Part shown: positions 12,873 to 34,138 of the stretch, in pieces
How the letters are laid out: each line of letters opens with the position of its first letter
How positions within the stretch are numbered: position 1 is the first letter of the stretch
Notes under the pieces: generated by a model
What the model was told of the DNA's origin: nothing
Seen by the model: only the letters and a program-made list of their open reading frames with translations
Databases searched by the model: none
DNA from: an uncultured virus (IMG/VR IMGVR_UViG_3300032135_000002)
Lineage: Duplodnaviria; Heunggongvirae; Uroviricota; Caudoviricetes
Virus record (IMG/VR): IMGVR_UViG_3300032135_000002
Reading direction: 5' to 3' (one strand)
Length of the DNA: 64,000 nt
Translations under genes and position numbers: made by a program

Positions 12873-13135
12873 AGACAAAAAAAGAAGTTCTCGACTTAAT
12901 TAACGAAGCAATCGAGGAAGAAAAAGGCCGTTCAGTTGGAATCGACGACATGTTTATGGATTCTGAACTGGACAGTCTGGGGGTTGTGTTAACGTTAGTA
13001 GCGTTAGAAGAAGAATTTGGTGACATGGAAGGATTTACTGAAGGTGAAGAACTACACGGAATAGAAGAACTTACTGTCAGGGACCTGGTGAAACAATGCA
13101 TATTAGCGATTTCAAGTACTTCAAAGGAACCGTAA
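12869..13135 (+). CDS. Acyl carrier protein-like
   Basis: 88 aa, very acidic. LDSLG phosphopantetheine-site motif (Ser codon 12974-12976), helix II LVALEEEFG, C-terminal TVRDLV. Confidence 0.85.
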   Translation: MKTKKEVLDLINEAIEEEKGRSVGIDDMFMDSELDSLGVVLTLVALEEEFGDMEGFTEGEELHGIEELTVRDLVKQCILAISSTSKEP

Positions 13136-13926: not shown

Positions 13927-14414
13927 TGTTTACCACACCGGCAATAATGGGACCTGACGTAGAATTTAGAAATTGCGTTGAAGGTGACGTAGCAAGGCAT
14001 TTTCAAAAAATAAAAGAGTACATTGAACCAGAGTTTCAAGATGACCATATTAGTAAAATGAAAGATTGTGTAGAGGATGGAACAGCGTTTGTCACCAAAG
14101 GTGATGAGTGTTTTATGTACTACAAAAAAACCAAAGAAGCTTTTGCAGATGCTGTTTCAATCTACGGTAAAAACTATCCGTTGATGATGATGGCAATGAT
14201 TGCTGGAATACCAAAACATGTTCCAGAGGATAAGAAAGACACAATTTTTTTGTACCTTACTCTGCACATAGGCAAGGATATAAAAGAGTACAAAGGAATG
14301 CTTTCAAAGACAGCAATATACCGTCACAGGACTAATGGTGACAGACTACTTATACGTACTGACGATCTCATAAGAAAATTTGAAAAGCTAAGGCTTAGGA
14401 GATTGGAAAAGTGA
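13926..14414 (+). CDS. Hypothetical protein, possibly a GNAT-like acyltransferase
   Basis: 162 aa. N-terminal VEFRNCVEGDVARHF resembles GNAT beta1-alpha1. Coupled to the ketosynthase gene by TAATG. The fold call is weak. Confidence 0.35.
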   Translation: MFTTPAIMGPDVEFRNCVEGDVARHFQKIKEYIEPEFQDDHISKMKDCVEDGTAFVTKGDECFMYYKKTKEAFADAVSIYGKNYPLMMMAMIAGIPKHVPEDKKDTIFLYLTLHIGKDIKEYKGMLSKTAIYRHRTNGDRLLIRTDDLIRKFEKLRLRRLEK

Positions 14415-17182
14415 GCGCAGTAATTGACGCTATAGAAAGTGTACTAGGAGCAATCGGTGACGCAATTGAGTCTTTCGTGTCTTTTGTCTGGAACGAAATT
14501 GTACTTAGAGAATTGGGAGATGTTCTTGGGCTTTTTGGTATTGAGGATGAGACTGTAGTTACTGTATCAAAAATATCTACAAAAATGTTTGACGAAAATA
14601 CTGAAGACGTAGTAAAAGCTGCAAAAACAAGAGCAGTAATGCGGTGGCTTAAAAGTGATATTTCTTTCTGGAAGTTCGTGTATTTTGAAATGAATTTAAC
14701 CAGAGGAAAGATAAATGGGTATTACAATTTCGCAGATAAAGGTAGATACATACACGGTTTGCCTAGTATGTCTGTGCAGGGTGAAAATAAAGATGAAAGT
14801 GCTATTAAAGATGCAATAGACGTTGTTTACTCTACCAATTCTGTACTTACATACAGTTCTAACAGCTACCCAACTTCTGAAGAACACTTCAAATTCCAGC
14901 TTCAAGGCGGTACCACAAACTATAAGCCAGGTCTTAATCAGCTGACTTACGATAATGAGTGGGGAAAAACATTTAGCAACTGGGCTTGGGGCAGTGTTAC
15001 GTACCTGAGTGGATCTAATAACTATGAAATATTAATAACCAGGGTAGCTGAAAGAGCTTCGTTTTGGATAGAAGGACCATCCGAAGTAACAGAAAGCAGT
15101 ACTGTTAATCTAATTGTAAGATCTAACAGACCAGTTCCTGTAGGGGAAAGTGTAACAGTAAATTTCACCTATTCTGGAACAGTAGATTCAAGCCAGTACA
15201 CAGCACCGGCATCGGCTGTAATGGCTGGTGGTTCAAGCTCTGTATCAATAGCAGTATCAATAACAGAAGACGCAATAAGCGAGTCTTTGGGTAATATAGT
15301 AACAACCGTAGATTCGATAACAAATACGAACGGAGCTTTTGAAGATTTAGTAATCACATTAGACTCAGTAGATACTTCTGTTTACGATAACGATTCTTTG
15401 GTTTTGACTCTGGATTCTATCTACGTAAATGAGTCAGATACTACGGTGACGGTACCAATAAAGCTGACCCAGGATGTTTCCGGAGGGTTTACAGTAGATT
15501 ATACACTGCCTGAAGGAACAGCAATTGCAGGTGTTGACTACGACGGTACTGGAGGTACGTTAACTTTTGCAGGAACTGCAGGAGAAGTTCAAAACATAGT
15601 CGTACCAATGACAGCCGATGTATCAACAGGATCGAGAGAAGACTTCACAGTTGCTTTGCAAAACTGCTCAGATGTCAGCGTAGATACTTCAAGAGTGGCA
15701 ACTGTAACTATTATAGATTCTGACCCTGGTGGACCAGCTCCTGATACATCAGTTTATGTAGCAACATTTATAGAGCCACAGTTTGTGGACGAAAGAGCAA
15801 TGGTGTGTAAATACTACACCAGTGGTCAAAGTTCTACCGATTGGTACTACTGGATCTACTATTACAGCTCAAACCTGTATCCAGACATTGATCCTTTAAA
15901 TACTGTTATTAGTGAACTTGAAATGCTCCCTGTTGGCATTATAAGAAAAGACAAAGTAAACGTAGATTTTGACAAAGATGGAGAAGAATATAAGACAACA
16001 AAAAACCTTTTGAGATTGGTAGATCTAAACGTAGACGATCTTATAGCGGGTGTAGAAGCTAACCCAGATAAAGATACGGTAGATGACGCTTACGTAAATT
16101 TTGCAGTTAGCCCAAGTGATACAGGGCCAGAAGTTGCAAAACTTCTTTATCTAACGTTTTATGAAATTATAGAAGTTAGAGGTATTACCTCTAATTCTGG
16201 AAAGTACACTTCTGCCTTCAGTGAGCAAGATGTTAACAACGGAAATGTTTGGACAAATCACAGTTACGTTAAAGACATATCTGGGTCTATTGGCACCGTA
16301 GGTATTCATACACACGAAATTGCGTGGACAAGTTACGAAAACAAGCTAACTTTAAGATTTCAAAAAACGGCTATCAGCTACGATGAAATCGTAATAGAAA
16401 ACATGAACAGCATGTCGAGTATAAAGTACGACGGTTACCATAAAGCAGCGTTTAACACACTTAAAGACAGTTCATTCACAATTCCACTGTCCTGGTACGT
16501 TTATGATCAGTTAACTAATGAAGAACTGATGAAGGTTTACCAGAAAATATTTCGTGTTGATTTTTATTCGATCGAAGTAACTCACTTAGCTTGGTACGAA
16601 ACTGCGGCATTTTTCAGCTTTATAAAATTTGCTTTGATAATAGTGTCTATTGTACTTACCGCTATTACGTTCGGAGCAGCAAGTGGTTTTTACGCAGGTG
16701 TTTGGGCAGTAATTCAGCAGGTTGTTATAAGTTATGTTGTAATGGAAATTGTAGTAGAGATTGCAGCGGCTACCGGAAGTGCTGCTTTAGCAGCTGCTAT
16801 AGGACTTATAGCTGCATTTATAATGAGAGACTTTTCAGGTCTTGAGCAAGTTGGGTTCTTTACCGCTGAGGGTGTGACATCGGCTATAACTGCATACTCA
16901 GCTGGATTGGGCACAGTGTACAAAGTAGAACTTGAAGAGATGACGGCAGAAACCGAAAAACTTATGGAGGAAATGAAGGAAAAAGAAGATTACTATGAGA
17001 ATAATTCCCCAGCAAGCAATTCTATATTAGACGCATCTTTTTACGCATCATTAAGTTCTACAGAAACCATGCTGTATCAATCCAGAGACGCACAGTACGA
17101 CTATAACGCTCAATTGACAGGTGCTTATGATAGACTTGTTAAAAATTACCACAGTGCACTTTTAGACTTGGGCATACATTAA
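14411..17182 (+). CDS. N4 gp53-like tail/membrane protein with two Calx-beta domains
   Basis: Synteny with N4; Calx-beta motif TVDYTLPEGTAIAGVDY.G.GGTLTF; hydrophobic C-terminal segments; GTG start. Confidence 0.7.
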   Translation: MSAVIDAIESVLGAIGDAIESFVSFVWNEIVLRELGDVLGLFGIEDETVVTVSKISTKMFDENTEDVVKAAKTRAVMRWLKSDISFWKFVYFEMNLTRGKINGYYNFADKGRYIHGLPSMSVQGENKDESAIKDAIDVVYSTNSVLTYSSNSYPTSEEHFKFQLQGGTTNYKPGLNQLTYDNEWGKTFSNWAWGSVTYLSGSNNYEILITRVAERASFWIEGPSEVTESSTVNLIVRSNRPVPVGESVTVNFTYSGTVDSSQYTAPASAVMAGGSSSVSIAVSITEDAISESLGNIVTTVDSITNTNGAFEDLVITLDSVDTSVYDNDSLVLTLDSIYVNESDTTVTVPIKLTQDVSGGFTVDYTLPEGTAIAGVDYDGTGGTLTFAGTAGEVQNIVVPMTADVSTGSREDFTVALQNCSDVSVDTSRVATVTIIDSDPGGPAPDTSVYVATFIEPQFVDERAMVCKYYTSGQSSTDWYYWIYYYSSNLYPDIDPLNTVISELEMLPVGIIRKDKVNVDFDKDGEEYKTTKNLLRLVDLNVDDLIAGVEANPDKDTVDDAYVNFAVSPSDTGPEVAKLLYLTFYEIIEVRGITSNSGKYTSAFSEQDVNNGNVWTNHSYVKDISGSIGTVGIHTHEIAWTSYENKLTLRFQKTAISYDEIVIENMNSMSSIKYDGYHKAAFNTLKDSSFTIPLSWYVYDQLTNEELMKVYQKIFRVDFYSIEVTHLAWYETAAFFSFIKFALIIVSIVLTAITFGAASGFYAGVWAVIQQVVISYVVMEIVVEIAAATGSAALAAAIGLIAAFIMRDFSGLEQVGFFTAEGVTSAITAYSAGLGTVYKVELEEMTAETEKLMEEMKEKEDYYENNSPASNSILDASFYASLSSTETMLYQSRDAQYDYNAQLTGAYDRLVKNYHSALLDLGIH

Positions 17183-17196
17183 AAAGGTATATTAAA

Positions 17197-17667
17197 ATGG
17201 CTGAAAACGGATCTTATTATCAACCCTTTGAAGTTAACAGTGGATTGCCTTCACTGGCTAATAGGAATCAAGTTCCAGGTACAGGGATGAGTTCTTATAC
17301 AGCTTATCCATCTTTAGACGTAAGACAAAGCCTGGGTAAAGGTGGATCTGCACCAACAGCAGGAATGCCAGATCCTGCAATGGGTGGTTTAGATGTTAAC
17401 GGTGGTGGTGGTATGCCATTTTGGGGTGGTGACAGTATGATTGGTAATATGGGACAAGGCATGAACCTTATAGGTAGCGGTGTATCTCTTGTAGGTATGC
17501 TTCAAAACATGAAAGATGCACGCAAAAACAACGATATTAATCGCAAAAACATCGGTCAACAGATGTCTCAGTCAAAGGTAGCATTTGATCGCAGTGTTGC
17601 ACGCCAAGATGGAACGTCTGAAGCTATTCGTCAAAGAAATGAGCGCGTAGCTCAAATGAATCAGTAA
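17197..17667 (+). CDS. N4 gp52-like small ejection protein
   Basis: 156 aa, Gly/Met-rich with a hydrophobic stretch, no Cys; synteny. Confidence 0.55.
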   Translation: MAENGSYYQPFEVNSGLPSLANRNQVPGTGMSSYTAYPSLDVRQSLGKGGSAPTAGMPDPAMGGLDVNGGGGMPFWGGDSMIGNMGQGMNLIGSGVSLVGMLQNMKDARKNNDINRKNIGQQMSQSKVAFDRSVARQDGTSEAIRQRNERVAQMNQ

Positions 17668-17679: not shown

Positions 17680-19635
17680 ATGGCTGCTTACGATCTTAAT
17701 GTACAAAGACCAGCTTCATTATCGGTTCCAAATTCGCCTGGAGCTAACGACTTAGCCAGATTTTTGAGTGTGTCAGAATCTGCCAGGGCGAACCAAGAAA
17801 AAGAAAAACTTAGCCAAAATATGTTTGACTGGGAAAAAGGTGCCGGAAAACGGGCGTTAACAGCAGCAGAGTCTGAACGTGAAAGAGTTCGTCAAGAAAA
17901 TATGGCAATGGGTAAATACTCTACAGATTCTGCAAGCGGCTACCTGTCAGATGCTAAGGAAGGGTTCCGTTTAGAAGCGGATACCCTAAAACAATTTGAT
18001 ACAGCGTACCCAAATGCCACCCCAGAGCAGCGGGACGGAATGCGTCAAAGAACTAGAGAAAAAATAACACAGACTCCTGGTGCTTTTGTTGACCAAAAAA
18101 CGATGCGATTCGATCTTGAAAACCAATTTGTAAACGAGTATGGGTTGGATAGAACAAAAGCCGCATCAGAAGCTGAAAGGATTATGGCTGCCAACTTTAC
18201 AGCACCTAAAGCACCTAATGAAAATGTCATGAAAGCTTACCTTGATACAGCTCTTAATGGTGGTGTTGGGTCCATGATAGCTAAGTACAATCCTAATGGT
18301 GAAAATGGCCAAGGATCTTATGGAACAAAAGGGAGTAGCGGTTATAGGTCAGAAGCAGAATTTGTAAAAGAAGTTCAGACTGGGGTAGATTCACAATTTG
18401 AAGAAGGTTCAAGAGGTTTAAGTATTAACTTCCCTGGTTCAAATCATGAAATTTACAAAGATGAACTTAGAGCTGCAGGGTTGTTGGCACAAACCCAACA
18501 AGGTATAAAACCTCAGTATTTTAATTCTGTTGTTTTAGGCATGTCACAAAATGGAAAACTGCCTAACGGACAAGATACAAAAGATTTAAAAAACTCTAAA
18601 AGTGAACTTTTTCAAACCATAACAACTAACGCTAGGATTCTTCAAGATCAGGCTGAAGGTCGTGGTAGAAACGGACGAAATGGTGGCTTATCTTTATCTC
18701 AGTTGGGTGAAATTTCTCAAAATGACATGAATATGAGATTTGAAACCATCGGTAAAGTAGGTGAACTATACAGACAACAGGGTGGAGTTCTTACTTCTGA
18801 CGAACAGTATCAGTTAATGAACGATCCCGCATTGCTTGAAGAATTTGGATTACTTCTTCAAGAATCTGTACCGAAGCAACAAGGCGGAGGAAACCCATCA
18901 CCCGCGGCTTCTGTACCTGCTCCTGTACCGGTTCCGGAAGCTAGTGCTAATAACCCCGCTCCTGCTCCAGAAGTGACAGTAGATGACATTGAAGACCCTG
19001 ATCCTATTGCCAATGCTTTGGGTGAAGGTGGAAATAGACCTGGACAGGGTACCTCTCCTGAAAGTGGTACAAAACAAACGGGAAATTCTCTTGAAGCACA
19101 GCTTGCTGGAATGGCAACAAGCAGTGAATCAGAGTTGCTACAAAATCAAAAAATGGCTATTGAAGAACAGCTTTCAAACACTCCTTCAGGCAATGACAGT
19201 ACTAAATTGTTTGCCGAATTGAATACTATTGATGATAAACAAGATGATAACTATGTAAAAAGTACTAAAGAAAGTGTTTCATTAATGACAGCCGGATACT
19301 TAAAAAATGCGATACCAGATCAAGAGTATAGAAGCAGGGCTCAATCAATAGTTAATAGAATTAAAAGTGGGTCAGCAAGTGATAATGAAGTATTAGAGCT
19401 AAGAACTATTTTTAAAAAATTCGGCAGAGCTGATAAAACATCACAACTTATGTTGCCCGGCAACACCCCAGCACCGTCCAGACAAGAGACCGGACCCACA
19501 GGTAACGGGCTTTCGCTAGCAGAAATGTCCTATGAGCCTAACCAGTCTGAAATTTACTCACAGGCTAATGGGTCCGAGCAGATAGAACTGAACAGAAGCA
19601 TGTTGAAGAGTAATTTTCCAAATCAGTTTCTATAG
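17680..19635 (+). CDS. N4 gp51-like ejection protein
   Basis: 651 aa, no Cys, Pro/Ala linker; position before the vRNAP genes. Confidence 0.55.
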   Translation: MAAYDLNVQRPASLSVPNSPGANDLARFLSVSESARANQEKEKLSQNMFDWEKGAGKRALTAAESERERVRQENMAMGKYSTDSASGYLSDAKEGFRLEADTLKQFDTAYPNATPEQRDGMRQRTREKITQTPGAFVDQKTMRFDLENQFVNEYGLDRTKAASEAERIMAANFTAPKAPNENVMKAYLDTALNGGVGSMIAKYNPNGENGQGSYGTKGSSGYRSEAEFVKEVQTGVDSQFEEGSRGLSINFPGSNHEIYKDELRAAGLLAQTQQGIKPQYFNSVVLGMSQNGKLPNGQDTKDLKNSKSELFQTITTNARILQDQAEGRGRNGRNGGLSLSQLGEISQNDMNMRFETIGKVGELYRQQGGVLTSDEQYQLMNDPALLEEFGLLLQESVPKQQGGGNPSPAASVPAPVPVPEASANNPAPAPEVTVDDIEDPDPIANALGEGGNRPGQGTSPESGTKQTGNSLEAQLAGMATSSESELLQNQKMAIEEQLSNTPSGNDSTKLFAELNTIDDKQDDNYVKSTKESVSLMTAGYLKNAIPDQEYRSRAQSIVNRIKSGSASDNEVLELRTIFKKFGRADKTSQLMLPGNTPAPSRQETGPTGNGLSLAEMSYEPNQSEIYSQANGSEQIELNRSMLKSNFPNQFL

Positions 19636-19692: not shown

Positions 19693-22656
19693 ATGGCGAC
19701 GTTAGACGAGATAATGGCACAGAGGTCATCAATGAGCTTGGCTGCTCCTGTTCTTGCTCCTGTACCTAAAACAAAGCTTCAAGAAAAGAAAGACAGGCTT
19801 TTTGGAGCACCAGAAGTACCTACTATTTCAGAAGATTCAGGTAACGGCCTTGAATCTTTGATGAATGGTGGCAATTCAAACAGAACACCAGGCTTGGGTG
19901 ACCGATTTGAGTCTAGCCTTTATAAGTCTGGTGGCAGTCTTGCCGACATGGGTAAGAGCATTTCCAATTCTATGTTTGATACCCAGTTTGACGATTCAGT
20001 AGAAACAGGCTGGAGCCGCCAATCTGACCCTGAGAACCGTCAAGCATCGGCAGCTGATGAAATGGCAGGGGTAAGTTTTGATCAGCGTCAGGCTGTTAAC
20101 CAGGATCTGCAAGGTGTTATGAACACCTATGTAGAAGACGGTTTACTTCCAGCGTTTGGTAAAGCTATACCTGAAGCATTTGGTGTTATAGCGGATTCAG
20201 GCTCATCTCTTGTAGAAATGGCTGCAGGTGCACTTGCGGCTCCTATTGGTGGTGCTGGTGTAGCACTGTTGGCCAAAAAAGCCAAAAACACTTTTGACCT
20301 TATTGGTAAAATTGATGATTCTTACGACAAGGCAAAAGAATCCATCAAAGCGGTAAAATTTGCAAAAGATTTGGCAGGTACCGTAGCAAAAAAATCTACA
20401 CAGGCCAGTGTTTTAACAGCCGACCTGGTTCAACAAACCAAAGTTGAGTACGAGCAAGAAACCGGCGAAAAGATGAGCCCTCAAAGGCTTGCCGGAACAA
20501 CTGTGGCTATTTTGGCCACGTCTGCTATGCAGATTCAAAGTGTTAAAATGCTCTATTTGCCAGGATCAAAAAGTTTTGTTGGTAATACTGTAAAACAAAA
20601 ATTCACCAACGAAATGAAACAGATGTCCAAGTACCTGGATCAAGGTGCTGTTAAATCTATCGCTAAAAGAATTGGTGGTGGTTTAGGAGCAGTATTTGTA
20701 GCAGGTGGTGCAGAAGCTGTTCAGGAGTACTCTCAAACCTGGGCTCAGATTCTAAGTGTGCACATGGACCCAGAAGAAGCTGGTGGGCTTTTTGCTTCAG
20801 CGTATAAAGAGCTTAATGACCAAGACAATCAGAATGAGGCTGACGTAGCCGCTATTCTCGGCGCAGTAGCTGGTGGTGGTATCAAATCTACTCTATCAGC
20901 GCCTGGATTAGCGGTTGGTGCAGTAGCTGACGTAGCTGTAGCAACGGGTGACAAGATCGTTAAAAGCTCTTACAACGCTGCCCGTGACAGGCTAAACCCT
21001 GCAGACCAGGAAGCTGACATTGAAGAGCGTAAAAACCTACGTGCAGCAGCTCAAGAGATTCAAACAGAATCTGCAAGAAAAGTATCTGTAGTAGCTGACT
21101 CAGGAAATTTTCAAAACGTTACTGACGAAGCTGTTAAAGCTGAAATGGTTAGAGTAGCTGCAGGTAGAGATTTGTCAGATCCGAAAGTATTTGAGTCTGT
21201 GTCTAACAAACTTGTACGTTCTTATAAAAAAGACAGTGTTAACGCCCTTACTGAAGAAAAGCTTCAAAACGGTTTTATAGCAGGAAGGAAAGTTGTAAAG
21301 CGTGTAGGTGATGACTTTGCAAAAATCCTGGATCTTGCTCCAGAAGAAATTGAGGCTGTAAAAAATTACGTAGTCAGCAAAGTAGAATCTACCAAAGAGT
21401 TTGGTCAAGCCTTTGCAGATGACATTAAGAATTTTAAGTCTTCTGCAACGTTAGGCGTAGCCGAAGCAGCTGTAGATTTCATATCGGAATCCGTAGAGGA
21501 AAACACCAAAAAAGGTGTTAAGTACGCAAACAGCAAAGAGTCTGTGCAGAAACTTAAAGGTCGTTTGGAATCACTCAACTCGGTCAGTGCAGCCAGGTCT
21601 CTGGCAACATCGTTAGAAACTAACTCTCCTGACAACAGCAAAAATGCTGTCAGAGAAATTAGAAGCTGGGCTGATCAGAAAGAAAAAGATCAAAAGCGGG
21701 TAAACCTCAAAAACGATTCTGCCCTAACTTACGATAATCTTGGTGACAGCGTAAAAGAAGCCAGCCAAGCAGGGGCTACTGTAACCAACCCAAGAGCCTT
21801 GAGCATAGAACTGTCCAATGCCAGAAAAGGCAGCATAGAGGACATGGAAACTCTGCAGTCCCTGGAAAACGCTCTTGAAAACTACAAGAAAACGGATTTT
21901 AGTAAAACGGGTGAAGCTACCCTGAGTGAAACTGCCGTTAAAAACATCGCCAGAAAGCTTTCCAAGGCACGGACAGAGCTTGAATCCAGACCCGATGCGT
22001 CTGTAACAAGTAAGGTAAAAGCCGCTGCTAGTACAGTTACAGGAGCCGCTAGCAAGGCAACTGCCTGGGCTAAGCCAGCTACTGACAAACTGAAAAGTAT
22101 GGGCATTACCACAGTAGATAAGCTGATTGATCGTGTCACCAACGAAGACGTTTTTGTATCAGAAGACACTGATGTACAAAGAGCTGCAATATCAGGAATT
22201 AATAAAGTTATAAAAAATATTCTTGAAAGCGAAGAAGGTAAAAGTGGCGATAACGTAGATCAAGAAGCTTTGCTCCAATCAAAAACAGCCATAATAGTTG
22301 GAGAAGATGGAGTTTTTGCAAAAAAGACTATAAAAGGACTTTCAAAGGTTTTCAAAACAAGTAACCCAGATTACTTGATAGCTGTCATGGAAAGAATATT
22401 CCCAGCTGTAAGAGAACCTTCTTTAGAAAAGATTCTACGTGACCGTATGTCAGAAGTGCTTAAAGATTCTGCTGAGCCTAACACTGAGCCAACACGGCAA
22501 AGAAAGAAGAGTGCTAACGAATCCGACACCAACAATCAAGATGATTCTGATGTTGTTATAGAAGAAGACGGTGCTGTTTTTAGATCTGCTCCTAACATGT
22601 CTAAAGTTAATGCTAAGATGGTAGAAATTCTGGGCAACCACATTTGTAAGGTCTAA
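19693..22656 (+). CDS. Ejection protein, likely the N-terminal part of a split virion RNA polymerase
   Basis: 987 aa, Ala/Gly-rich hydrophobic segments, GGAEAVQEYSQ motif. Size matches the roughly 1000-aa N-domain of N4 vRNAP. Single Cys at residue 985. Confidence 0.65.
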   Translation: MATLDEIMAQRSSMSLAAPVLAPVPKTKLQEKKDRLFGAPEVPTISEDSGNGLESLMNGGNSNRTPGLGDRFESSLYKSGGSLADMGKSISNSMFDTQFDDSVETGWSRQSDPENRQASAADEMAGVSFDQRQAVNQDLQGVMNTYVEDGLLPAFGKAIPEAFGVIADSGSSLVEMAAGALAAPIGGAGVALLAKKAKNTFDLIGKIDDSYDKAKESIKAVKFAKDLAGTVAKKSTQASVLTADLVQQTKVEYEQETGEKMSPQRLAGTTVAILATSAMQIQSVKMLYLPGSKSFVGNTVKQKFTNEMKQMSKYLDQGAVKSIAKRIGGGLGAVFVAGGAEAVQEYSQTWAQILSVHMDPEEAGGLFASAYKELNDQDNQNEADVAAILGAVAGGGIKSTLSAPGLAVGAVADVAVATGDKIVKSSYNAARDRLNPADQEADIEERKNLRAAAQEIQTESARKVSVVADSGNFQNVTDEAVKAEMVRVAAGRDLSDPKVFESVSNKLVRSYKKDSVNALTEEKLQNGFIAGRKVVKRVGDDFAKILDLAPEEIEAVKNYVVSKVESTKEFGQAFADDIKNFKSSATLGVAEAAVDFISESVEENTKKGVKYANSKESVQKLKGRLESLNSVSAARSLATSLETNSPDNSKNAVREIRSWADQKEKDQKRVNLKNDSALTYDNLGDSVKEASQAGATVTNPRALSIELSNARKGSIEDMETLQSLENALENYKKTDFSKTGEATLSETAVKNIARKLSKARTELESRPDASVTSKVKAAASTVTGAASKATAWAKPATDKLKSMGITTVDKLIDRVTNEDVFVSEDTDVQRAAISGINKVIKNILESEEGKSGDNVDQEALLQSKTAIIVGEDGVFAKKTIKGLSKVFKTSNPDYLIAVMERIFPAVREPSLEKILRDRMSEVLKDSAEPNTEPTRQRKKSANESDTNNQDDSDVVIEEDGAVFRSAPNMSKVNAKMVEILGNHICKV

Positions 22657-22658
22657 AA

Positions 22659-25600
22659 ATGGCAAATTGCATAAGCATTGAAGATTATCTTGATACGTTG
22701 AGAGAGATTGCCCAAGAGGTAGAAATAAACCAACTTGGTGACCAAGATACTCGTGTAAACGTTTGGAACATCTCTGATACTGACGTAGCTAATATGTTAG
22801 AAAACTACCGAGTGCCTCAGTCAGTAAGTTCCCAATCTGATCGTTTAACCAGAAAATTGGAAGGCGCATTAGCCGGTATTTCACCAACTCACAAGCAAAA
22901 AGTAAAAACTCTTGTTGATAGGCTTAAAAGTAAAAGTTCTTTGGGAGAAAGCAGCGATAAATCTGCACGCTCTCAAATGGTCGCTTTGAAAGAAATTATT
23001 TCTTCTATTGCAGGTGAAGTAAATAAAGCAAGCAACATGAGAGTGCCGCTTACTGTAATAAGTCCTGGCAGTGTGCCTAACATTCCTATGGCAAGATTGG
23101 CTGCTATGATCGGTCGTAAAGTCCTGTACCAAAATGGGTACAGGTCTACCGGCTTGGGTGAAGAAAACAGCGCAGCTAAAGCTGAGCACATGTATTACCT
23201 GGTGGGCGAAAGGATTCTTGAATCTTTACAAGATGGTGGTTTTGTAAAAATTAACGAAGCTAACAGCGGTCAATCTACGCTTATTGATTACATTGATGGT
23301 GATAAAAAAAGAATGCCTCGTGGTCCTGATGCCCACACCACTAATATGAAGTCTGTAACGTTAATTCCAAAATCTCTTGACCTTTCTACAAAAGAAGGCA
23401 GTGCTGATTTAGATACGATTCTAGGCAAAACATCCGAACAATCTGATAGCGTATTTGGATCTTACCTAAAAATGATTGATGCAGTGTCTTATGTCACTGT
23501 TCCGGAAACAATCATTTTTCCAAAAACCGGATTCATGAGTTACGACCCTGACACATTCACTAAAAAAAGTTCGTACAAGGGCAATAAAGAATTATTGAAA
23601 TCGGTTAGAGAAATAGAAAGCAAACCGCTGTACATGAACAGTGACGTACATAGCTTGTTTGCCAACATTGCAAAAGAAACAGAGAATATTAGTAAAAGTG
23701 CCTCATCTTGGATAAACAATAATTTAGACGCTCTGTCACTAAGCAAGCTGTTTAACATGGAACAGAGTAATGATATTGAGTCAGATAAAGCCAGTAATAT
23801 GGGCAGAAATCTTTCTAAGTCTACGCCTATAGATGACGTAGTTGAGTACTTTTCAAAGTTTAAAGATAACCCTGCACTGTTCTTCAAAATGTTCCTGGGA
23901 CGCAATGCCAGGGCTTACATGGAGAACTCAGTACTTAACCCGCAGACTTCCAAAAGCATGAGATTTGCTATGGAAGTTGAACCCTATGCTATGGAAGTTG
24001 GATCAGACGTTTATAAGTACTACGTAGATAAGGTAGCCAGATCTACTCTGCCTAAAGGCAAAGACGGTACCGTACCTGCTCAAACACTGCTTAAAGAAGA
24101 CATGAGCAGTGAGCCTATGGGTGCTGAAATTCAAAAAGCTTTGAACGCTTACAACAAATACAGTGAAGCAAGAAGTGCTAACAGTCAGCTAACCGCTTTG
24201 AGGGCAATGAGCAATTCCGGTCTAAAATTTGAAAACTTTTCTGATCTTTTATCTTCTGTAAAAGCGATTAAAGGCATTCGTGAAAGTCTTGATTCCAAGC
24301 GGATAACGTCTACCTACATGGTATCCAGTGACGCTACCGGTTCGGGTGGTTTGTTAACACTGTTGCAAGCTATTGGTTCTACACAGGAAGAAGACATTAC
24401 CAAAGTCTTGAAAAGTTTGGGTGTGTTTAAAAGTAACGAAGAACAGGATCTCGCAGAAGTTAAAGACATATACGGCATTCTTACAAACGCTTTACAGCCG
24501 TTTTTAGATGAAGAACCGGATAGTGATGGTATCTACGAGCTTTCATTAGATCGGAAGCTTAATGAAGAAACCGTTAGGTCTGTTTTAACATCGGTCAAAG
24601 ACGATCTATTTGACGGGGATTTTCGAGAACTCTCCAAGTCACCAACGATGACATTCATCTACGACCAGTCTGAAGATGGGGCCGTAGAATCTATGGCAGA
24701 AACTTTTACTGAAAAACTTTTAGGTAAGCTCAGAAACAACAATGCTGTTAGTCCGGAGCTAATTAAACTTCTTAATGATCTTTTACCTACAAAGGTAACT
24801 ACTCAAAAAGATGTCAATGATTTGAAAAAAACCGATAAAAAGTTAAAAGCGTCACTGGAACAAGGATTTATAAATTCCGGAGTTGGTAATTTTTTGTACG
24901 ATGCTTTGGGTACGACTGTTAGAAGAAAGTATTTGGACAACCACAAATCTATGGCTAAAAGGGTATTTAACCTTATTAGCCAAAACGTAGGTGATCCACA
25001 GTTCAAAGTGATGCCTGCAGCCTGGGTAGTTGAACGGGCTGAGTCAGGTGGAAGCATTGAACCTACACTAGCAGAGTTGAGGGAATACGGCGTACCGTTG
25101 ACCAAACTTTATGATGTTGCTCGTGAGGTTGACGGTGGTGACGTTGTTTTGACCCGTGAAGACCGTCTTGCAGAAACTGTAATGAACACTTCGATGATCC
25201 ACACAGCCGATACTGCAGCTATGTTTGGAAGCCTTAAGGGGCTACCTACGAAGCACAATACCGGAGTCATAACGGTACACGATGCGTACTTCTCCAACGC
25301 CCATTTGGTCATGGAGAACGACTCAAAATACATAGCAGAGACTCTGAAAGTTGCTCAGCATTTTGATATCCAAGAGCAGGTTATGTTAGCTATTAAAGCT
25401 TTTTCAGGTAAAAAAACTGACGAAGATAAGTCTTTTGATGGTATACTTGAGTTTACCAGAAAGCGTAAAGCTACCAAACAACAGGCTCTAAAGGACAACT
25501 TTGATGCAGAAACGAATAGTGTTATTGGCGACGGAAATGGCTATCGAAATCTTGAAGTCTCAGGTGTCAAAGCAAAAGAGGCAACACCCAGAACTACAAA

Positions 25601-28600
25601 GCAAAAAATCGAAGGAACGCAAAGCACGAATAGCAGCCCGAAAGTTAGTCCAAAAAGACAGGTAAGTAACCGTGATGCTGCTACGCAGAGAGCTTTGGAA
25701 AAGCTTTCTGCTAAGTCACCTATCATTGCGGGATTCCTGAAAAGCACTAACAAGTCGGCAGTAGTTAAAGGCACAGTAGATTCTTTCCAGTCAGATACCG
25801 ACACAATCACCATTTCTGACACTGCAACCATAGCTGACATTGAACACGAAATTGTTCACAGCTACACCGTTGGCATGATCGAAAAAACGTTTGAAGCGGA
25901 TAAAAATTCTGAGTTTGTTGAACAGGTTGAACTGATAACAGGCAAAGGTAGCTTCAATCAAAATCTTCGTGACATGAAGTACATCCAGAAAGCGTTAGCT
26001 AAAATTGATGCAAGCAAGCTTTCCGGAGAAACCAAAAACCGGATTGTTTACGCCAAAAACCAGGCTAATGAAAAAACAGCTTTGGGTGAGTTTGTCTCCA
26101 TAATGAGCACTGAACCTTCAGTAGCTAAAGAGGTTTATAAGCAATTTGGATCTGGCAACACCTTAAAAGGAATTATTGGCCGAGTTGTTAAGAGCATCCA
26201 AAGGATTTTAAAAAGTCCTACAGCTGCGGATCTAAGCATGGACACAGTAGATGCTGAGATTCTGTACAGTTCTATAAACGGTCTCATCGAAGGTGGTAAG
26301 TCGATGAGGGAAAATTCTTACGAGCAAAATTTGCAACTACAAAAGGAATTTGGTGAAGACCTATATTCTGGGTCTCGGGCAGGTGACTACGTAAAAAAGT
26401 CTCGTGATTACTTCGAGCTTTTAAACAGTTCAATGGCCAGGTCTATAAATGATCCAGCGGTACGAAAAATAGGATCTTGGACAGCATCTCTGGATGGGAT
26501 TGTGCGTGACAAGTTTCCTGTCTACAGTCAGGCAGCTGACTACATGAAAGGCATCTACGATGGATCTGAGGCGCTTCAGAGCTTGGTGCACAAAATCACC
26601 AACAGCAACATCAACAACGAAACCAAAAACGAAGTTCTGTCTACGTTTTCGAGGTTGAGGGCTGAGCGTAACGACCTGGTAAGCAGAGAGCTTCGTAAGT
26701 TTAAAAAACTTACTTTTAACATGACCGAAGGCCAACTCAGAAGCTATCGTGATTTCACTCAAAAAATGGCCATACAGGATTACTTTCTGCTTGCTGAGAC
26801 CGTTACCGATATCGATGCCAAAGTAGATGAGCTAAAAGCATCTTTAAAGTCAGACGCAACTAACAAGTTAGATACCATTGTAAAAATGAACGTTGATGGT
26901 GAGATTACCAGCAAGACTTACTACAACGTCAAACAGATCATGGGTTCAGCAGGTGATAACCAAAACAACGCCAGGGCTTACGTAGCTTTGCGATCAATTC
27001 AGGAATTGGGACAAGATCGGTTCACTGAATTTTTGGGCAACACTGAGCTTTTGACGCTTATCAAAGACACTGTATTGGCTAACGAGTCTCTGACTTTTGA
27101 AGGTGGAATTAATACTTCCAAACTTCGAGACAACGGCCTGGCTGAAAATTTTGAAACTCCCATCGTGAAACGGGCAGTTCATCCTAATGATATGCGGTTT
27201 ATGGCCAAGTACGAAAAGGATGGCTGGAAGCGTTTAAAAACCTCAGGTGATGAAAACCAGCCAGTCATATTGTACAAGTCTGAAATTGATCAGACGTATC
27301 AAGAAGGTGTGTTTACAGACATTCGTACACAGACTGCAGACATACCTGTTACAGAGGCTTTCAAGTCGTTTAACAACGTGGTTAAGACAGCTGATGGAAG
27401 CTACGTCATGGTCCTGAGTGAAGACCAGAGACATAAGCTAGGGGCCAGTAAGGACCCAAGCCAGAGCCTGGTCAGAACAATGGCACATAATATGACCATG
27501 AAAGAGTCAGAAATTATCAGGAATAAGTTACTGGAGAAAGAGACCTATTGGGATTTGAAATCTAAGGATACCGACAGCTTGAAAAGGTTGGTTAAAGATC
27601 CCAGTCGAGATAACCCTTGGTTCTTGGGATCAACTAACGATTTTGATATGTCTAAGCACCCAGAGTTGCTGAAGCACTACACACCCGTTACAAAAAGTCT
27701 TTCTGACCACAATCGGTTTGATGAAAAAATTCAGTACGTCAGAAAAGACATTGGCTACTGGTTGATCGGTGCCTCAGAACGGTCTGTGGTACGTGATCCT
27801 AAACTACAGTGGGCGTTGAGAATTACCAAAAACATCGTATCCGGAATGAAGATAGGCTTGATTGCGCTGAACCCTGTCAAGATTCTTAACGACAACGTAT
27901 CGAACATCACGTACCTGGGCATCAGAGGCGTAGATCCGGTGTTCCTGCAAAGGCAGTACCGAAAAATCAGCACTGAGTTTAACGAGTACCACGGTATCCG
28001 TAACAGGTACATGGATCTGAAAGTACGAAGCTATTCAAATCCTGGTGACTATAAAGATCAGATGGATAAAATTCAGAAAGAACTTAAAAACCATCCCGCA
28101 AACGGGTTTATCGAAAGAGGGTTTTTAAATTCACTCGGATCAGAATTGATCATGAACACAGACGATCCCTCATCGGGATTCAAAAGCGATCTTGATGCTA
28201 TTCTAAAAAAGGTATTTCAAGACAATGAAGGTAAAAACAACTCAGTTGGAAGACTTCTCATTAAGAGTGCTAAGTGGAACGTAGGTTTAGAAGAACTTCT
28301 TGAAACTGTTAGTCCTGTGTTTGGACAGGTAGGGTCTACAAAAGAAGTTGAAAAATCGATCAATGAAATAGCGGATCGTTGGAAAGACATTAAAACCAAG
28401 GAAGACGCAGTAGCGTACATGCACCAGTACCTAAACAGTCCGGACAGTGAGTTTGTTAAGCTGGGCAGTCACATGACGGATCTCAGTGACGTGATGGCTA
28501 AAGAAACGCTGTACCGTCATCTGATGGGCAATGGCATGAGCGCTAAAAAAGCAGAGTTGGAGGTTATTGATTCTTTTCCTGACTACAAAGAGGCAATGCC

Positions 28601-28865
28601 GGTTAAAGTTCGTCAGTTAAGCGATGTGGGCATTCTTATGTTTCCTTCGTATTGGCTGAGGATTCAGAAAACGATTTACCGGATGATCAAAGACCGTCCG
28701 GTAAGTTTCGGGATTGAAGAAGCTATAAACGAGTTGGTTGGTTTGGAAGGTTCTTCAATAGAAGACGCGAATATCATTTCCAAATTTAATTCTCATTTGG
28801 GTATATTCCACAACCCCTGGGCAGATCCGGGAGTCGGCAACATAGTACCGACTCACGTATTCTAA
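22659..28865 (+). CDS. Virion-encapsidated single-subunit RNA polymerase (catalytic and C-terminal part)
   Basis: Motif A SDATGSG, motif B RELSKSPTMTFIY, motif C VHDAY; HEIVH zincin motif; last gene of the virion operon as in N4. Confidence 0.88.
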   Translation: MANCISIEDYLDTLREIAQEVEINQLGDQDTRVNVWNISDTDVANMLENYRVPQSVSSQSDRLTRKLEGALAGISPTHKQKVKTLVDRLKSKSSLGESSDKSARSQMVALKEIISSIAGEVNKASNMRVPLTVISPGSVPNIPMARLAAMIGRKVLYQNGYRSTGLGEENSAAKAEHMYYLVGERILESLQDGGFVKINEANSGQSTLIDYIDGDKKRMPRGPDAHTTNMKSVTLIPKSLDLSTKEGSADLDTILGKTSEQSDSVFGSYLKMIDAVSYVTVPETIIFPKTGFMSYDPDTFTKKSSYKGNKELLKSVREIESKPLYMNSDVHSLFANIAKETENISKSASSWINNNLDALSLSKLFNMEQSNDIESDKASNMGRNLSKSTPIDDVVEYFSKFKDNPALFFKMFLGRNARAYMENSVLNPQTSKSMRFAMEVEPYAMEVGSDVYKYYVDKVARSTLPKGKDGTVPAQTLLKEDMSSEPMGAEIQKALNAYNKYSEARSANSQLTALRAMSNSGLKFENFSDLLSSVKAIKGIRESLDSKRITSTYMVSSDATGSGGLLTLLQAIGSTQEEDITKVLKSLGVFKSNEEQDLAEVKDIYGILTNALQPFLDEEPDSDGIYELSLDRKLNEETVRSVLTSVKDDLFDGDFRELSKSPTMTFIYDQSEDGAVESMAETFTEKLLGKLRNNNAVSPELIKLLNDLLPTKVTTQKDVNDLKKTDKKLKASLEQGFINSGVGNFLYDALGTTVRRKYLDNHKSMAKRVFNLISQNVGDPQFKVMPAAWVVERAESGGSIEPTLAELREYGVPLTKLYDVAREVDGGDVVLTREDRLAETVMNTSMIHTADTAAMFGSLKGLPTKHNTGVITVHDAYFSNAHLVMENDSKYIAETLKVAQHFDIQEQVMLAIKAFSGKKTDEDKSFDGILEFTRKRKATKQQALKDNFDAETNSVIGDGNGYRNLEVSGVKAKEATPRTTKQKIEGTQSTNSSPKVSPKRQVSNRDAATQRALEKLSAKSPIIAGFLKSTNKSAVVKGTVDSFQSDTDTITISDTATIADIEHEIVHSYTVGMIEKTFEADKNSEFVEQVELITGKGSFNQNLRDMKYIQKALAKIDASKLSGETKNRIVYAKNQANEKTALGEFVSIMSTEPSVAKEVYKQFGSGNTLKGIIGRVVKSIQRILKSPTAADLSMDTVDAEILYSSINGLIEGGKSMRENSYEQNLQLQKEFGEDLYSGSRAGDYVKKSRDYFELLNSSMARSINDPAVRKIGSWTASLDGIVRDKFPVYSQAADYMKGIYDGSEALQSLVHKITNSNINNETKNEVLSTFSRLRAERNDLVSRELRKFKKLTFNMTEGQLRSYRDFTQKMAIQDYFLLAETVTDIDAKVDELKASLKSDATNKLDTIVKMNVDGEITSKTYYNVKQIMGSAGDNQNNARAYVALRSIQELGQDRFTEFLGNTELLTLIKDTVLANESLTFEGGINTSKLRDNGLAENFETPIVKRAVHPNDMRFMAKYEKDGWKRLKTSGDENQPVILYKSEIDQTYQEGVFTDIRTQTADIPVTEAFKSFNNVVKTADGSYVMVLSEDQRHKLGASKDPSQSLVRTMAHNMTMKESEIIRNKLLEKETYWDLKSKDTDSLKRLVKDPSRDNPWFLGSTNDFDMSKHPELLKHYTPVTKSLSDHNRFDEKIQYVRKDIGYWLIGASERSVVRDPKLQWALRITKNIVSGMKIGLIALNPVKILNDNVSNITYLGIRGVDPVFLQRQYRKISTEFNEYHGIRNRYMDLKVRSYSNPGDYKDQMDKIQKELKNHPANGFIERGFLNSLGSELIMNTDDPSSGFKSDLDAILKKVFQDNEGKNNSVGRLLIKSAKWNVGLEELLETVSPVFGQVGSTKEVEKSINEIADRWKDIKTKEDAVAYMHQYLNSPDSEFVKLGSHMTDLSDVMAKETLYRHLMGNGMSAKKAELEVIDSFPDYKEAMPVKVRQLSDVGILMFPSYWLRIQKTIYRMIKDRPVSFGIEEAINELVGLEGSSIEDANIISKFNSHLGIFHNPWADPGVGNIVPTHVF

Positions 28866-31393: not shown

Positions 31394-31651
31394 TTATCTG
31401 TTACATTTTTTATGCGATAGCTTTAGTAGAAATAGGTACCCAGGCTTATCTTCTTTTTTAGAAAAATAGTGTTCTATGGTAGCCATTTCTTCAACATCAT
31501 TTACAGGCTCTCCCATAGTTGGAAAGAGCATAGGTTTTTCACACCAGCAACATTTTTCACCGTAGAGTGTGCGAAGGATATTACGAAAACGATCTCTTCG
31601 TGACTTGCTGATATAAAGACCGTTATTTTTACGTCTTTCAGTTTTTTTCAT
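31394..31651 (-). CDS. Small HNH endonuclease
   Basis: CCWC, ATIEH, SHKKCN. Confidence 0.7.
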   Translation of the reverse strand: MKKTERRKNNGLYISKSRRDRFRNILRTLYGEKCCWCEKPMLFPTMGEPVNDVEEMATIEHYFSKKEDKPGYLFLLKLSHKKCNR

Positions 31652-33423
31652 AAGATTGCCAAAACCTCTTCTATTTGTTGGATAGAAGCATTGTTTGGAA
31701 TTTTATGAAGATCCGCCCAATTTAGTCCAATTTCACCTTCAGCTTCGTTGTGAATTTCCTCATCTTGCAAATACTGAACAGTCATCACTTCGATAAGGTT
31801 TTCATTAACCCATTTTATTATTTCAGGATCACGGTAGGTTTGCGTGTAGATACTGTCGTAGATTGTAGATTGTACCTGAACATACTTTTCCAGATTTTCC
31901 TGCTCTATGCGGTAGTTCAGTTCGTTCACAGCGATGAGTGTTAGGATGCTCCAAAACTGTACGGTTGCGTTGTGCAAGGTTCTGATATCGTTATGAGCGT
32001 TGTCTGTATAAAGACGACAACCAAGACCCAGGTGGATGTAACCGTTACTGGCAGCCGTTGGAAGAACATAGTTATCACGGTAATCAGTAATTCCTGGATA
32101 CAGAACATTGTGGTACCTATCGAAAATCTCCTGAGTTATAACACCTCCTTTGTCTACATCTGGAAATCCACCATAAGCAAGTTTGAATGTTGGAGCTTTA
32201 GATTTTTGACGAATATCTTTTATAACAGAGTTTCCTTCGTCATTTTTTTGCATAAAGGCTTTAACAAAATCAACGTTATTGTTAAATTTTCCGATAGTTT
32301 TTTCTATCTCTTCTGAATAGTATCCACACGCATTTAGAGAATGGCCATCAAGACCTTCTTTAAATACGTTGCACTTATTCACATCTCCAGAAAGATTGGA
32401 TATTACACGGTCTTCCAGTGCAGATAGATCTGCTGTGTAAATTACAAAGTCTTTCTTTGCTGTAAAGCACCGTTTCAGTGGCTTTGCGTAGATTGATTTA
32501 CTGCTGGGAGCATTAAGCAGATTTGGAGAATTTGATGTATTTCTAAACGATTTGGCACCAAACAGTTTTATTTTACCGTGAAGAACTTTATCAATAGTGA
32601 ATGTATCAAACGCTTTTATAAAATTGCTTTTTATGATGAAACTAAATGAGTTGTCGATCATAGCGTCAAGCATTTCAATTAAAACTTCATCTTTTGAATC
32701 TTTACGAAGTTCTTCAATTTGATCACGACCCCATGAAGGTTCTCCTGTGTCTTTGGAGTAAGACCTTGCAGGAATCTTCAACATCTGAAAAATCTCACAA
32801 GTTTGCTTTGAGCTGTTAGGGTTGAAGGCTTCCAGACTAACTTTCTGCTTCTTTTTCTCGTAGCGTGGCCTGTTCCAAAGCTCAAGTTTGTACTCTGCCA
32901 GGGAGCGCATAGCTTTCACTGCAGTAGTGCAATTTGCGCTTATCCGCTTATCTATGACACTGGACAAAAAAGGATCATTCAAAAAGACGTTGTATTCCTT
33001 TACGTCTTTAACAGACCACTTATTACGGACATCTTTATCACGGCCTATGGCCAGTAGATGCGTGTTGACCAACCAGGTACGGTGAGTCATGTCTGTTTCT
33101 TTGAATGGCTTTAAATAATGATCAAGGGTGCGAACAGATTTGGTAGCTTCTTCTTCATGCTCTCTCTGAGCCTTTGGCCTACGCATGGTCTCCTGGTACT
33201 TAATAACGTAAGGGTGTTTGCCTAAACGTTCGTATACAGTCTCTTGAACCTCATCAATGAGCGTTCTGAGATTTTCAACAGCTTCTGATTCAATCAATAG
33301 ACCTGTATCCACCATTTTTATCATGTCAGGGATAAAGTGGCTGGCAAAGTTATCATAGAAATAACTGGGTCCAGGATCATGGTCACAAGGAAAAGGAACA
33401 GGAAGTCTTTCAAAAGGGCGCAT
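31648..33423 (-). CDS. Family A DNA polymerase, polymerase domain
   Basis: SNSPNLLN, motif A ADLSALEDR, motif B RQKSKAPTFKLAYG (Phe at the 762-equivalent position), motif C TIYDS. Confidence 0.9.
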   Translation of the reverse strand: MRPFERLPVPFPCDHDPGPSYFYDNFASHFIPDMIKMVDTGLLIESEAVENLRTLIDEVQETVYERLGKHPYVIKYQETMRRPKAQREHEEEATKSVRTLDHYLKPFKETDMTHRTWLVNTHLLAIGRDKDVRNKWSVKDVKEYNVFLNDPFLSSVIDKRISANCTTAVKAMRSLAEYKLELWNRPRYEKKKQKVSLEAFNPNSSKQTCEIFQMLKIPARSYSKDTGEPSWGRDQIEELRKDSKDEVLIEMLDAMIDNSFSFIIKSNFIKAFDTFTIDKVLHGKIKLFGAKSFRNTSNSPNLLNAPSSKSIYAKPLKRCFTAKKDFVIYTADLSALEDRVISNLSGDVNKCNVFKEGLDGHSLNACGYYSEEIEKTIGKFNNNVDFVKAFMQKNDEGNSVIKDIRQKSKAPTFKLAYGGFPDVDKGGVITQEIFDRYHNVLYPGITDYRDNYVLPTAASNGYIHLGLGCRLYTDNAHNDIRTLHNATVQFWSILTLIAVNELNYRIEQENLEKYVQVQSTIYDSIYTQTYRDPEIIKWVNENLIEVMTVQYLQDEEIHNEAEGEIGLNWADLHKIPNNASIQQIEEVLAIL

Positions 33424-34138
33424 AACTTAAATGCTCCTGTAATTCTTCGTCGCTAAAATTTCTTTTGGTCAGTAACAAGTTTTCTTTTATGTATTTGTCC
33501 CTATATATAGCGGCATCTAATGCGGTTTTGTGGTAGCAGCTCATGATTCGTTTTTTTCCAATAGTAATCTGGCTAGTCCAAGGATTTTTCATATGAGATA
33601 TACGTTTAGGTGCAGTTACACCAACAAACCCAGAAGTATTTTTTACACCTAAAATCTTACCTGTATTAGACTCTACTCTACCTTCAACACCATTAGTTGT
33701 GTGGGGTAGTTTGTTGTCTTTTACATAAATGTCGTAAGCAATAGCAGATTCCTCAGAAGTACCGTAGAACCCAACTGTTACAGTTTTATTTTTTACACTT
33801 ATAGATGTTTCCCATTTTTCGTACATCTTATTCCAACTTACACCCCTAAAACCGGACTTGTTATGACTGTAGAGAATTCGGGTATTAGCTGACTGCACTA
33901 GCTGATTAGTCCACCTACAGTTACCAGGACGGTAATCACCATTATTATCTATTCTGTCTATTGAAGACTTATCATTATAACCGTTAGACAAAGCCCAGAT
34001 TTTAAATTCCTCATAAGAATTTTTCCACTCTTCGCACACTGCTATGTGAGAATACTCAAGTTTTCTGGTACACCTATATTTCATACCCTTCCATATGTTA
34101 TTTAAACGATTACCAGTATCACCGTGTGTCTTGTTCAT
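33410..34138 (-). CDS. HNH homing endonuclease with AP2 domains
   Basis: SIDRIDNNGDYRPGNCRW followed by two N.SGF.GV AP2-like repeats. Confidence 0.88.
   Translation of the reverse strand: MNKTHGDTGNRLNNIWKGMKYRCTRKLEYSHIAVCEEWKNSYEEFKIWALSNGYNDKSSIDRIDNNGDYRPGNCRWTNQLVQSANTRILYSHNKSGFRGVSWNKMYEKWETSISVKNKTVTVGFYGTSEESAIAYDIYVKDNKLPHTTNGVEGRVESNTGKILGVKNTSGFVGVTAPKRISHMKNPWTSQITIGKKRIMSCYHKTALDAAIYRDKYIKENLLLTKRNFSDEELQEHLSYAPF

Follow-up and report, generated by a model that had tools for sequence, protein, structure and literature searches.

The window analysed here is a stretch of 64,000 nucleotides (nt) from an uncultured N4-like phage (IMG/VR record IMGVR_UViG_3300032135_000002). Its virion RNA polymerase (vRNAP) is encoded by two neighbouring open reading frames (ORFs) on the plus strand, referred to here as the N piece and the C piece, and each of the two proteins contains one cysteine, located at the end that faces the other protein (Table 1). 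The first-pass annotation had described the sizes and ends of both ORFs, a 2-nt gap preceded by TAAGG, and one cysteine per protein; coordinates and lengths are as it claimed, and a scripted count returned exactly C985 in the N piece, C4 in the C piece and none elsewhere in 3055 amino acids (aa). Across the junction the letters read ...ATT TGT AAG GTC TAA AA ATG GCA AAT TGC..., the C piece starting with the ATG at 22659-22661. The two ORFs lie in different reading frames and the frame of the C piece is open only from 22650, so that no alternative upstream start exists. The 156-aa and 651-aa putative ejection proteins encoded upstream contain no cysteine, again by script and as had been stated before.

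Table 1. Features of the ejection operon of the window and of the junction between the two vRNAP genes (RNAP, RNA polymerase; SD, Shine-Dalgarno).
Feature	Position	Strand	Description
Virion protein at N4 gp53 position	14411..17182	+	923 aa, 2 Cys; phrog_2220, E 3.5e-33; Pfam Calx-beta, E 1.3e-13; gene order
Putative ejection protein at N4 gp52 (150 aa) position	17197..17667	+	156 aa, 0 Cys; assigned by synteny and size only
Putative ejection protein at N4 gp51 (644 aa) position	17680..19635	+	651 aa, 0 Cys; assigned by synteny and size only
N piece of vRNAP	19693..22656	+	987 aa, 105.6 kDa; ends NHICKV*; read as counterpart of gp50 N-terminal domain plus linker; sole Cys C985
Cys985 codon TGT	22645..22647	+	2 residues before the C terminus of the N piece
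Junction	22647..22658	+	SD-like TAAGG 22647-22651; TAA stop 22654-22656; 2-nt AA spacer
C piece of vRNAP	22659..28865	+	2068 aa, 231.1 kDa; starts MANC; sole Cys C4
Cys4 codon TGC	22668..22670	+	in C piece; invariant in family alignments A1 and A2
RNAP domain of C piece (residues 1-1007)	22659..25679	+	counterpart of N4 mini-vRNAP by motifs and profile alignment; alignable with the RNAP piece encoded separately in record G002
C-terminal domain of C piece (residues 1012-2068)	25692..28865	+	counterpart of gp50 C-terminal domain; phrog_2206; aligns with the separate 1280-aa piece of record G002

The remaining predicted proteins of the window contain 206 cysteines in 15,907 residues (1.3%), a rate at which about 40 would be expected in 3055 aa. 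The Poisson probability of finding at most two is 5e-15, and it is 7e-7 if the lower cysteine rate of the structural block (0.64%) is applied. Given one cysteine in each protein, the probability that both fall this near to the facing ends is 6e-6. Both the scarcity of cysteine in the vRNAP pair and its placement at the ends exceed chance.

A trivial explanation would be that a single-chain gene was cut by an indel and that the two cysteines lie nearby by accident, and the spacer indeed sits in a run of five A's (22655-22659), a typical site of indels. The junction was compared over 22300-23000 with contigs of four public runs (X2, X8, X14 and X15). The contigs of X2 and X8, which may be the source of the window DNA, span this interval unbroken and without any difference, and one contig of X14 (22300-22736) also crosses the junction without difference. 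The A-run varies naturally, as a contig of X15, a run from another study, has three A's instead of five; here, the TAA stop directly abuts the ATG, by which the frame offset is altered and stop and start are both kept. Furthermore, the split recurs in relatives down to approximately 30% identity, and the positional probability given above holds for this window alone. The possibility of an assembly indel, raised in the first-pass annotation, is therefore refuted by the contigs and by the presence of the split in every relative found, and the probability of an artefact or accident is regarded as negligible. A DNA search with the junction against 50,697 phage records gave no match. The runs containing the stretch are labelled as brine metagenomes, from many studies, plus one aquatic metagenome, and no RNA run is among those listed.

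The order of the genes, with products of 923, 156, 651 and 987 plus 2068 aa, parallels that of N4 gp53, gp52, gp51 and gp50 (3500 aa). The C piece matches phrog_2206, annotated as 'virion RNA polymerase' (E 6.7e-34), and its family alignment A1 was aligned by hhalign with a profile of N4 gp50 and three fused relatives (profile A4) with a probability of 100% (E 5.9e-74, 1843 columns), extending from query 103-2062 to template 1177-3530 and thereby over the RNAP domain and the C-terminal domain (CTD) to the end of gp50. The motifs of T7-like single-subunit RNAPs (T/DxxGR, A, B and C), which the first-pass annotation had reported for the 2068-aa ORF, were found in the C piece in contexts that match N4 gp50. 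R415 of motif T/DxxGR corresponds to N4 position 424, counted from gp50 residue 998 (gp50 1421), D558 of motif A to 559 (gp50 1556), R656/K660/Y668 of motif B to 666/670/678 (gp50 1663-1675) and D875 of motif C to 951 (gp50 1948). The earlier background on the N4 enzyme also stood, gp50 being a 3500-aa chain without cysteine whose motif positions fit an offset of 997. As the distances of motifs T/DxxGR, A and B from the N terminus are nearly equal, the C piece begins where the mini-vRNAP begins, and the break falls into the linker 907-1006 of gp50. In N4, the RNAP was modelled from residue 1007/1008, residues 907-1006 were described as a linker of low complexity that leads to the N-terminal domain (NTD), which was not resolved, and a second linker, 2102-2123, precedes the CTD (PMC13434306).

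The N piece has a comparable hydrophilic stretch of low complexity near its end, and its last residues form a short, conserved tail. A hidden Markov model (HMM) of the N-piece family matches two fused relatives in their N-terminal part, P0131 (2761 aa) at E 6e-19 and P0158 at E 1e-26, and on the basis of these matches and of its position we read the N piece as the counterpart of the NTD of gp50. The window contains the ejection operon of a podophage distantly related to N4, whose vRNAP is encoded in two genes and broken in the flexible linker between the NTD, an envelope or ejection domain, and the RNAP. Pairwise BLASTP against N4 gp50, gp51 and gp52 resulted in just a marginal C-terminal match (E 0.014), the comparison of the 651-aa protein with gp51 not being significant, and the 156-aa protein has no Pfam or PHROG match. 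Neither the N nor the C piece matched Pfam at E<=0.01. With the C piece, phmmer found no match among PDB sequences, and profile A2, searched against the same sequences, matched motif B of T7 RNAP weakly (E 0.012) and did not reach the N4 mini-vRNAP. For the N piece, the ESM Atlas matches were limited to viral clusters without a name and to structures with template modelling (TM) scores of at most 0.21, the Atlas model itself being poor (predicted TM score 0.31, predicted local distance difference test 0.49). A precomputed match to Pfam PF00940, the phage-type RNA polymerase family, is present in five of 62 relatives (P0191, P0197, P0203, P0206 and P0211).

The cysteine pair is conserved wherever the break between NTD and RNAP could be compared. 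A word-based search with the C piece found 11 proteins; the ten strong homologs (31-100% identity, 2058-2073 aa) each possess one cysteine at position 3-6, and the eleventh, a marginal match (E 1.8e-6, 14% coverage), has none. A scan of IMG/VR resulted in 28 loci, 17 of which reach the junction, the other 11 being cut inside the C gene. After leaving out five duplicates (L006, identical to L005; L013, to the window; L020, to L019; L024 and L025, to L023) and keeping the three-piece locus L018 apart, the remaining IMG/VR loci, the window and two cultured Alteromonas phages, PT11-V19 and R22Y, make up 14 distinct two-piece junctions. In all 14, the single cysteine of the upstream protein (911-1089 aa) lies 0-5 residues from the end, and that of the downstream protein (1884-2135 aa) lies at position 3-6. 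The sole cysteine lies 2 residues from the end in 12/12 homologs of the N piece, C985 is among just seven invariant columns in an alignment of 19 N pieces, and the family alignments of the C piece show C4 and I5 without variation at its head. The conservation of both terminal cysteines in split homologs, on which the first-pass annotation had made its proposal depend, was thus observed throughout these sets. PT11-V19 and R22Y, the closest cultured relatives, share the two-piece plan and the cysteine pair at approximately 35% identity over the C piece; the upstream piece of PT11-V19 is annotated as 'hypothetical protein', and the R22Y paper gives the vRNAP as 2083 aa and leaves cysteine unmentioned (PMC11705849).

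These junctions also bear on the question of whether the two ORFs yield one chain by recoding, i.e., by a ribosome hop from Cys codon to Cys codon, a frameshift or read-through. The Cys codons are merely 14-35 nt apart in the 14 junctions, and in two of them the Cys codon adjoins the stop, which is the arrangement of the take-off site of T4 gene 60, where the take-off codon directly precedes the stop. However, the downstream ORF starts with an ATG, 2-5 codons ahead of the cysteine, in 14/14 junctions, and in five of these start and stop overlap (ATGA or TAATG) as in translational coupling. Each of the frame offsets 0, 1 and 2 is represented and the natural variant shifts the offset within the phage of the window itself, the same Cys codon stands on both sides in only 6/14 junctions, and no slippery heptamer is present at 22645-22656. 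Zheng et al. (2023) put separated vRNAP ORFs down to gene-calling errors or read-through and concatenated them (PMC10654107); against this, AltAD45 virions contain two polypeptides, of 270 and 175 kDa, and resequencing of a polymerase chain reaction (PCR) product verified the stop (PMC3821669), and the structure of the ejection proteins of phage A-4L, described below, has two chains joined through sulfur (PMC12002296). Programmed translational bypass of the T4 gene 60 type was rejected, given the identity of the codons in 6/14 junctions, the ATG in 14/14 and the paired RNAP and CTD pieces of record G002, which lie six genes and 6.5 kb apart. Recoding of any kind is considered highly improbable, and two separately translated pieces remain the preferred reading.

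Breaks at the second linker, between RNAP and CTD, constitute a natural experiment. At the three-piece locus L018 (record G002), the polymerase is encoded in three genes: an N piece with its sole cysteine 2 residues ahead of the end, an RNAP piece of 1003 aa with exactly two cysteines, C3 and C1000, and a CTD piece of 1280 aa with one cysteine, C6, which is encoded approximately 6.5 kb past the RNAP piece behind six unrelated Cys-rich genes. In its near relative L014, RNAP and CTD are fused through a low-complexity linker free of cysteine; within the L014 protein, residues 1-955 align with the G002 RNAP piece at 58% identity, and residues 1050-1883 with the CTD piece at 67%. A search with the G002 CTD piece found 57 further proteins. 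All 30 long ones (at least 1836 aa, RNAP plus CTD) have their sole cysteine at position 3-7, and 19/27 of the separate short CTD pieces have it at position 6-10. In AltAD45-P1, the vRNAP is broken at the RNAP/CTD linker only, and the sole cysteines lie 2 residues from the end of the 2481-aa piece and at position 4 of the downstream 1409-aa piece.

In G002, tails (...MVEILGNHICKV vs. ...MVEQLKVCLAN) and heads (MANCIS vs. MALKGCIT) appear similar at the two types of junction. This likeness hints at a reusable clasp module. The insert between the RNAP and CTD genes (L034, G002:C1, 25369-31886) contains six genes for proteins of 94-751 aa, most of them with several cysteines.

A wider survey was performed with a profile of the RNAP domain, built from 13 sequences, against 1.84 billion representatives, which resulted in 218 matches at E<=0.001; the classes given here comprise the best 150 of these 218, sorted by the place of the RNAP domain in the protein, with nine proteins that start inside the domain left out of the N-terminal counts. 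A cysteine is present within the first 10 residues in 111 of the 112 proteins whose chain begins with the RNAP domain, whereas none of the 29 with an attached NTD has a cysteine at the N-terminal end. Likewise, a cysteine is present within the last 10 residues in 34 of the 38 proteins that end just after the RNAP domain (18/22 consisting of the RNAP only, 16/16 consisting of NTD and RNAP) and at the C-terminal end in none of the 88 with an attached CTD. Internal cysteines amount to five in 273,184 residues, and the 12 fully fused chains contain no cysteine in 35,355 residues.

In a FastTree phylogeny of 127 RNAP domains (950 columns, midpoint root), parsimony requires at least three changes of state at the N junction and at least 12 at the C junction, compared with means of 27 and 34 after shuffling of the labels. 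Broken, Cys-tipped proteins stand as supported sisters of fused, Cys-free ones in P0014/P0017, P0141/P0153 and P0117+P0097/P0144. As reconstructed on this tree, the terminal pair is recurrent at independent breaks.

A structural precedent for a bond between such ends comes from the cyanopodophage A4 (Anabaena phage A-4L). In its packaged pre-ejectosome, as revealed by cryo-electron microscopy, Cys1715 of gp27 is linked to Cys5 of gp26 by a disulfide, and gp27 docks on gp26 with its C-terminal helix (PNAS 2025, PMC12002296). In the A-4L record, gp27 (1717 aa, C1715) and the adjacent gp26 (1114 aa, C5) each have this residue as sole cysteine. The likeness to the window consists in consecutive ejection-protein genes with the sole cysteines at facing termini, here C985 of 987 and C4. 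The systems differ in that A-4L is a 41.7-kb phage whose record has no annotated RNA polymerase, and in that the accessible text of the paper describes one bond and no general rule.

The halves of the vRNAP, encoded separately, are most likely joined head-to-tail through their terminal cysteines by a disulfide, forming one thread for packaging and injection; this is suggested by the sequences and by analogy with A-4L. A bond between these two ends would fit three features: each facing end has one cysteine of a pair, outer ends and fused chains never have one, and the pair recurs at independent breaks, one of them between genes that are not adjacent. The two pieces would be translated separately and packaged together, and the terminal cysteines would form the interchain disulfide in the virion. 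The bond would rebuild a near-linear chain of approximately 337 kDa, its side stubs being just 2 and 3 residues long, which could thread through the tail like the single-chain enzyme of N4, and the exclusion of other cysteines would avoid wrong cross-links. The stubs beyond the paired cysteines are 0-5 residues each in length and would therefore suit the beads-on-a-string threading proposed for N4. On reaching the cytoplasm the bond may be reduced, freeing the polymerase from the N piece; this step is more speculative, and is considered possible rather than probable. The disulfide staple of the first-pass annotation is supported, as far as sequences and analogy allow, by the conserved pair, the second pairs at second breaks, the absence from fused chains and the A-4L structure.

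Alternatively, the terminal cysteines might not be paired with each other, acting instead in a metal site, in thioester or acyl attachment, or in a bond to a third partner. A sequence does not reveal the partner of a sulfur, and the R22Y paper annotates an acyl carrier protein (ACP) in a relative (PMC11705849). The first-pass annotation had likewise proposed S-acylation or ligation tied to a module of ACP and ketosynthase as an alternative. However, neither these families nor an acyltransferase family were found in the predicted ORFs of at least 50 aa, which were scanned against Pfam at E<=1e-4 and E<=0.01, with 11940-14414 searched against PHROGs only. Lacking the module, and with the cysteine rule holding across very different gene contents, that alternative is left without support. 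In addition, a third partner would not predict cysteines that always come as matched pairs at facing ends and never at outer ends or in fused chains, the alignments have no conserved His or Cys neighbours suited to a metal site (invariant are C4 and I5 at the head and C985 at the tail), and the sole solved example, A-4L, is a disulfide (PMC12002296). Chemistry of this other kind is thus judged unlikely. Split inteins and trans-splicing were rejected as well: a split intein has an N-intein of approximately 100 aa starting with Cys and a C-intein ending with His-Asn before Cys, and here just 0-5 residues follow the first cysteine and 2-5 precede the second.

A further possibility retains the disulfide and differs in when it forms, namely during infection by the periplasmic Dsb enzymes of the host, by which the ejectosome would be locked outside the cytoplasm. 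Homologs of gp71 of Pseudomonas phage DEV, a member of the Schitoviridae, contain 0.00075% cysteine compared to 0.865% in the proteomes, which the DEV paper credits to passage through the periplasm (PMC11445570), and if ejection proteins avoid cysteine owing to this disulfide-forming compartment, the terminal pair might exploit it. Against this, the A-4L bond is present in the packaged pre-ejectosome ahead of ejection (PMC12002296), two free pieces leaving the capsid separately would need to meet, and stubs of at most 6 residues fit a thread that is already joined. Formation by host Dsb enzymes is judged unlikely as well, and a disulfide made before ejection is the favoured reading.

Several points weigh against this interpretation. 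Virions assemble in the reducing cytoplasm, Pfam scans of the predicted ORFs found no thiol oxidase or thioredoxin family in the window, and for the lineage of the window the bond itself is one that we infer from sequence. The polypeptides of the AltAD45 virions ran as separate bands, the accessible text leaving the reducing conditions unstated (PMC3821669). HMMs of the N and C families showed no similarity to A-4L gp25-gp29 (best E 0.19); as the A-4L proteins are without detectable similarity, the precedent is an analogy for the chemistry and not a sign of shared ancestry. The N piece has no significant similarity to N4 gp50 by BLASTP, and hhalign of its profile A3 against profile A4 gave a probability of 0.5%. 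The survey also contains exceptions: P0140 starts at the RNAP domain without a cysteine, and P0078, P0081, P0101 and P0105 end after it without a C-terminal one. Being single leaves of the tree beside fused relatives, P0140, P0078, P0081 and P0105 are suggested to be cut gene calls, and P0101 stays unexplained. Finally, 8/27 CTD pieces are free of cysteine; P0185, P0188, P0218 and P0222 begin mid-domain at their first residue and P0228 has no start Met and is labelled partial, while P0186, P0195 and P0212 stay unexplained.

Compared with gp50 of coliphage N4 and gp71 of DEV, both single-chain vRNAPs of the Schitoviridae, the vRNAP of the window shares a homologous RNAP and CTD, the place in the operon, the avoidance of cysteine and the three-domain plan with flexible linkers (PMC13434306). 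In contrast to these single chains without cysteine, it has, in place of one linker, a break flanked by one cysteine per side, and the divergence of its N piece is too great for a match to the NTD of gp50. The Alteromonas phages AltAD45-P1 to P4 resemble it in having the vRNAP as two polypeptides, which were seen on virion gels, with the split resequenced by PCR (Garcia-Heredia 2013, PMC3821669), and differ in that it is the linker between RNAP and CTD that is broken. In that study the cysteines were read as a sign that the piece is not injected, their paired, terminal placement being unremarked in the accessible text (PMC3821669). No paper stating a terminal-cysteine rule for virion RNA polymerases was found in the literature searched.

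Elsewhere in the window, a family A DNA polymerase seems to be encoded in pieces on the minus strand (31648-35196), with the polymerase ORF at 31648-33423, the 3'-5' exonuclease ORF at 34119-34781 and an ORF with an AP2 domain between them (33410-34138); a segE-like GIY-YIG endonuclease ORF (34774-35196) precedes the exonuclease ORF. This looks like a DNA polymerase gene split by insertion of a homing endonuclease. Among the mostly Cys-free structural proteins, a protein of 1196 aa (7972-11562, plus strand) has 19 cysteines and no Pfam match and may be an external fibre or spike; among these structural proteins, the portal has three cysteines and the proteins of 3140-4285, 4297-5559 and 6965-7972 have none. 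Similarly, it is the Cys-rich proteins that stand inserted between the RNAP and CTD genes in G002. A Tad2-like domain (Thoeris anti-defence 2; E 4.8e-21) is present in a 242-aa protein (58168-58896, plus strand). Genes for a dCMP deaminase (49910-50374), a RepL-like protein (60150-60686) and a T5orf172 domain protein (61397-61810) lie in the early and replication region.

How a polymerase of approximately 380 kDa passes through a tail channel of approximately 35 Å is an open puzzle of N4-like phages, for which the structural study of N4 proposed threading as beads on a string (PMC13434306). A chain that has a pair of cysteines at the tips of nearly all its breaks, and that excludes cysteine otherwise, is what would be expected if the protein leaves the capsid as a continuous, unbranched chain. 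It is a tentative and rather doubtful extension that the cysteine pair is a portable clasp, by which a giant ejected protein can be cut at any linker into separately encoded genes and still be delivered as one thread, which arose many times and maybe also acts as a redox timer that frees the polymerase from an envelope-spanning N piece in the reducing cytoplasm. If true, this would constitute a redox-triggered release of an injected phage enzyme and would directly attest to ejection of the polymerase as a linear chain of fixed order. The rule re-reads the claim of non-injection made for the AltAD45 phages as well as the treatment of separated ORFs by Zheng et al. (2023) as gene-calling errors or read-through, and the terminal-cysteine pair provides a simple sequence rule for the annotation of split virion polymerases in metagenomes.

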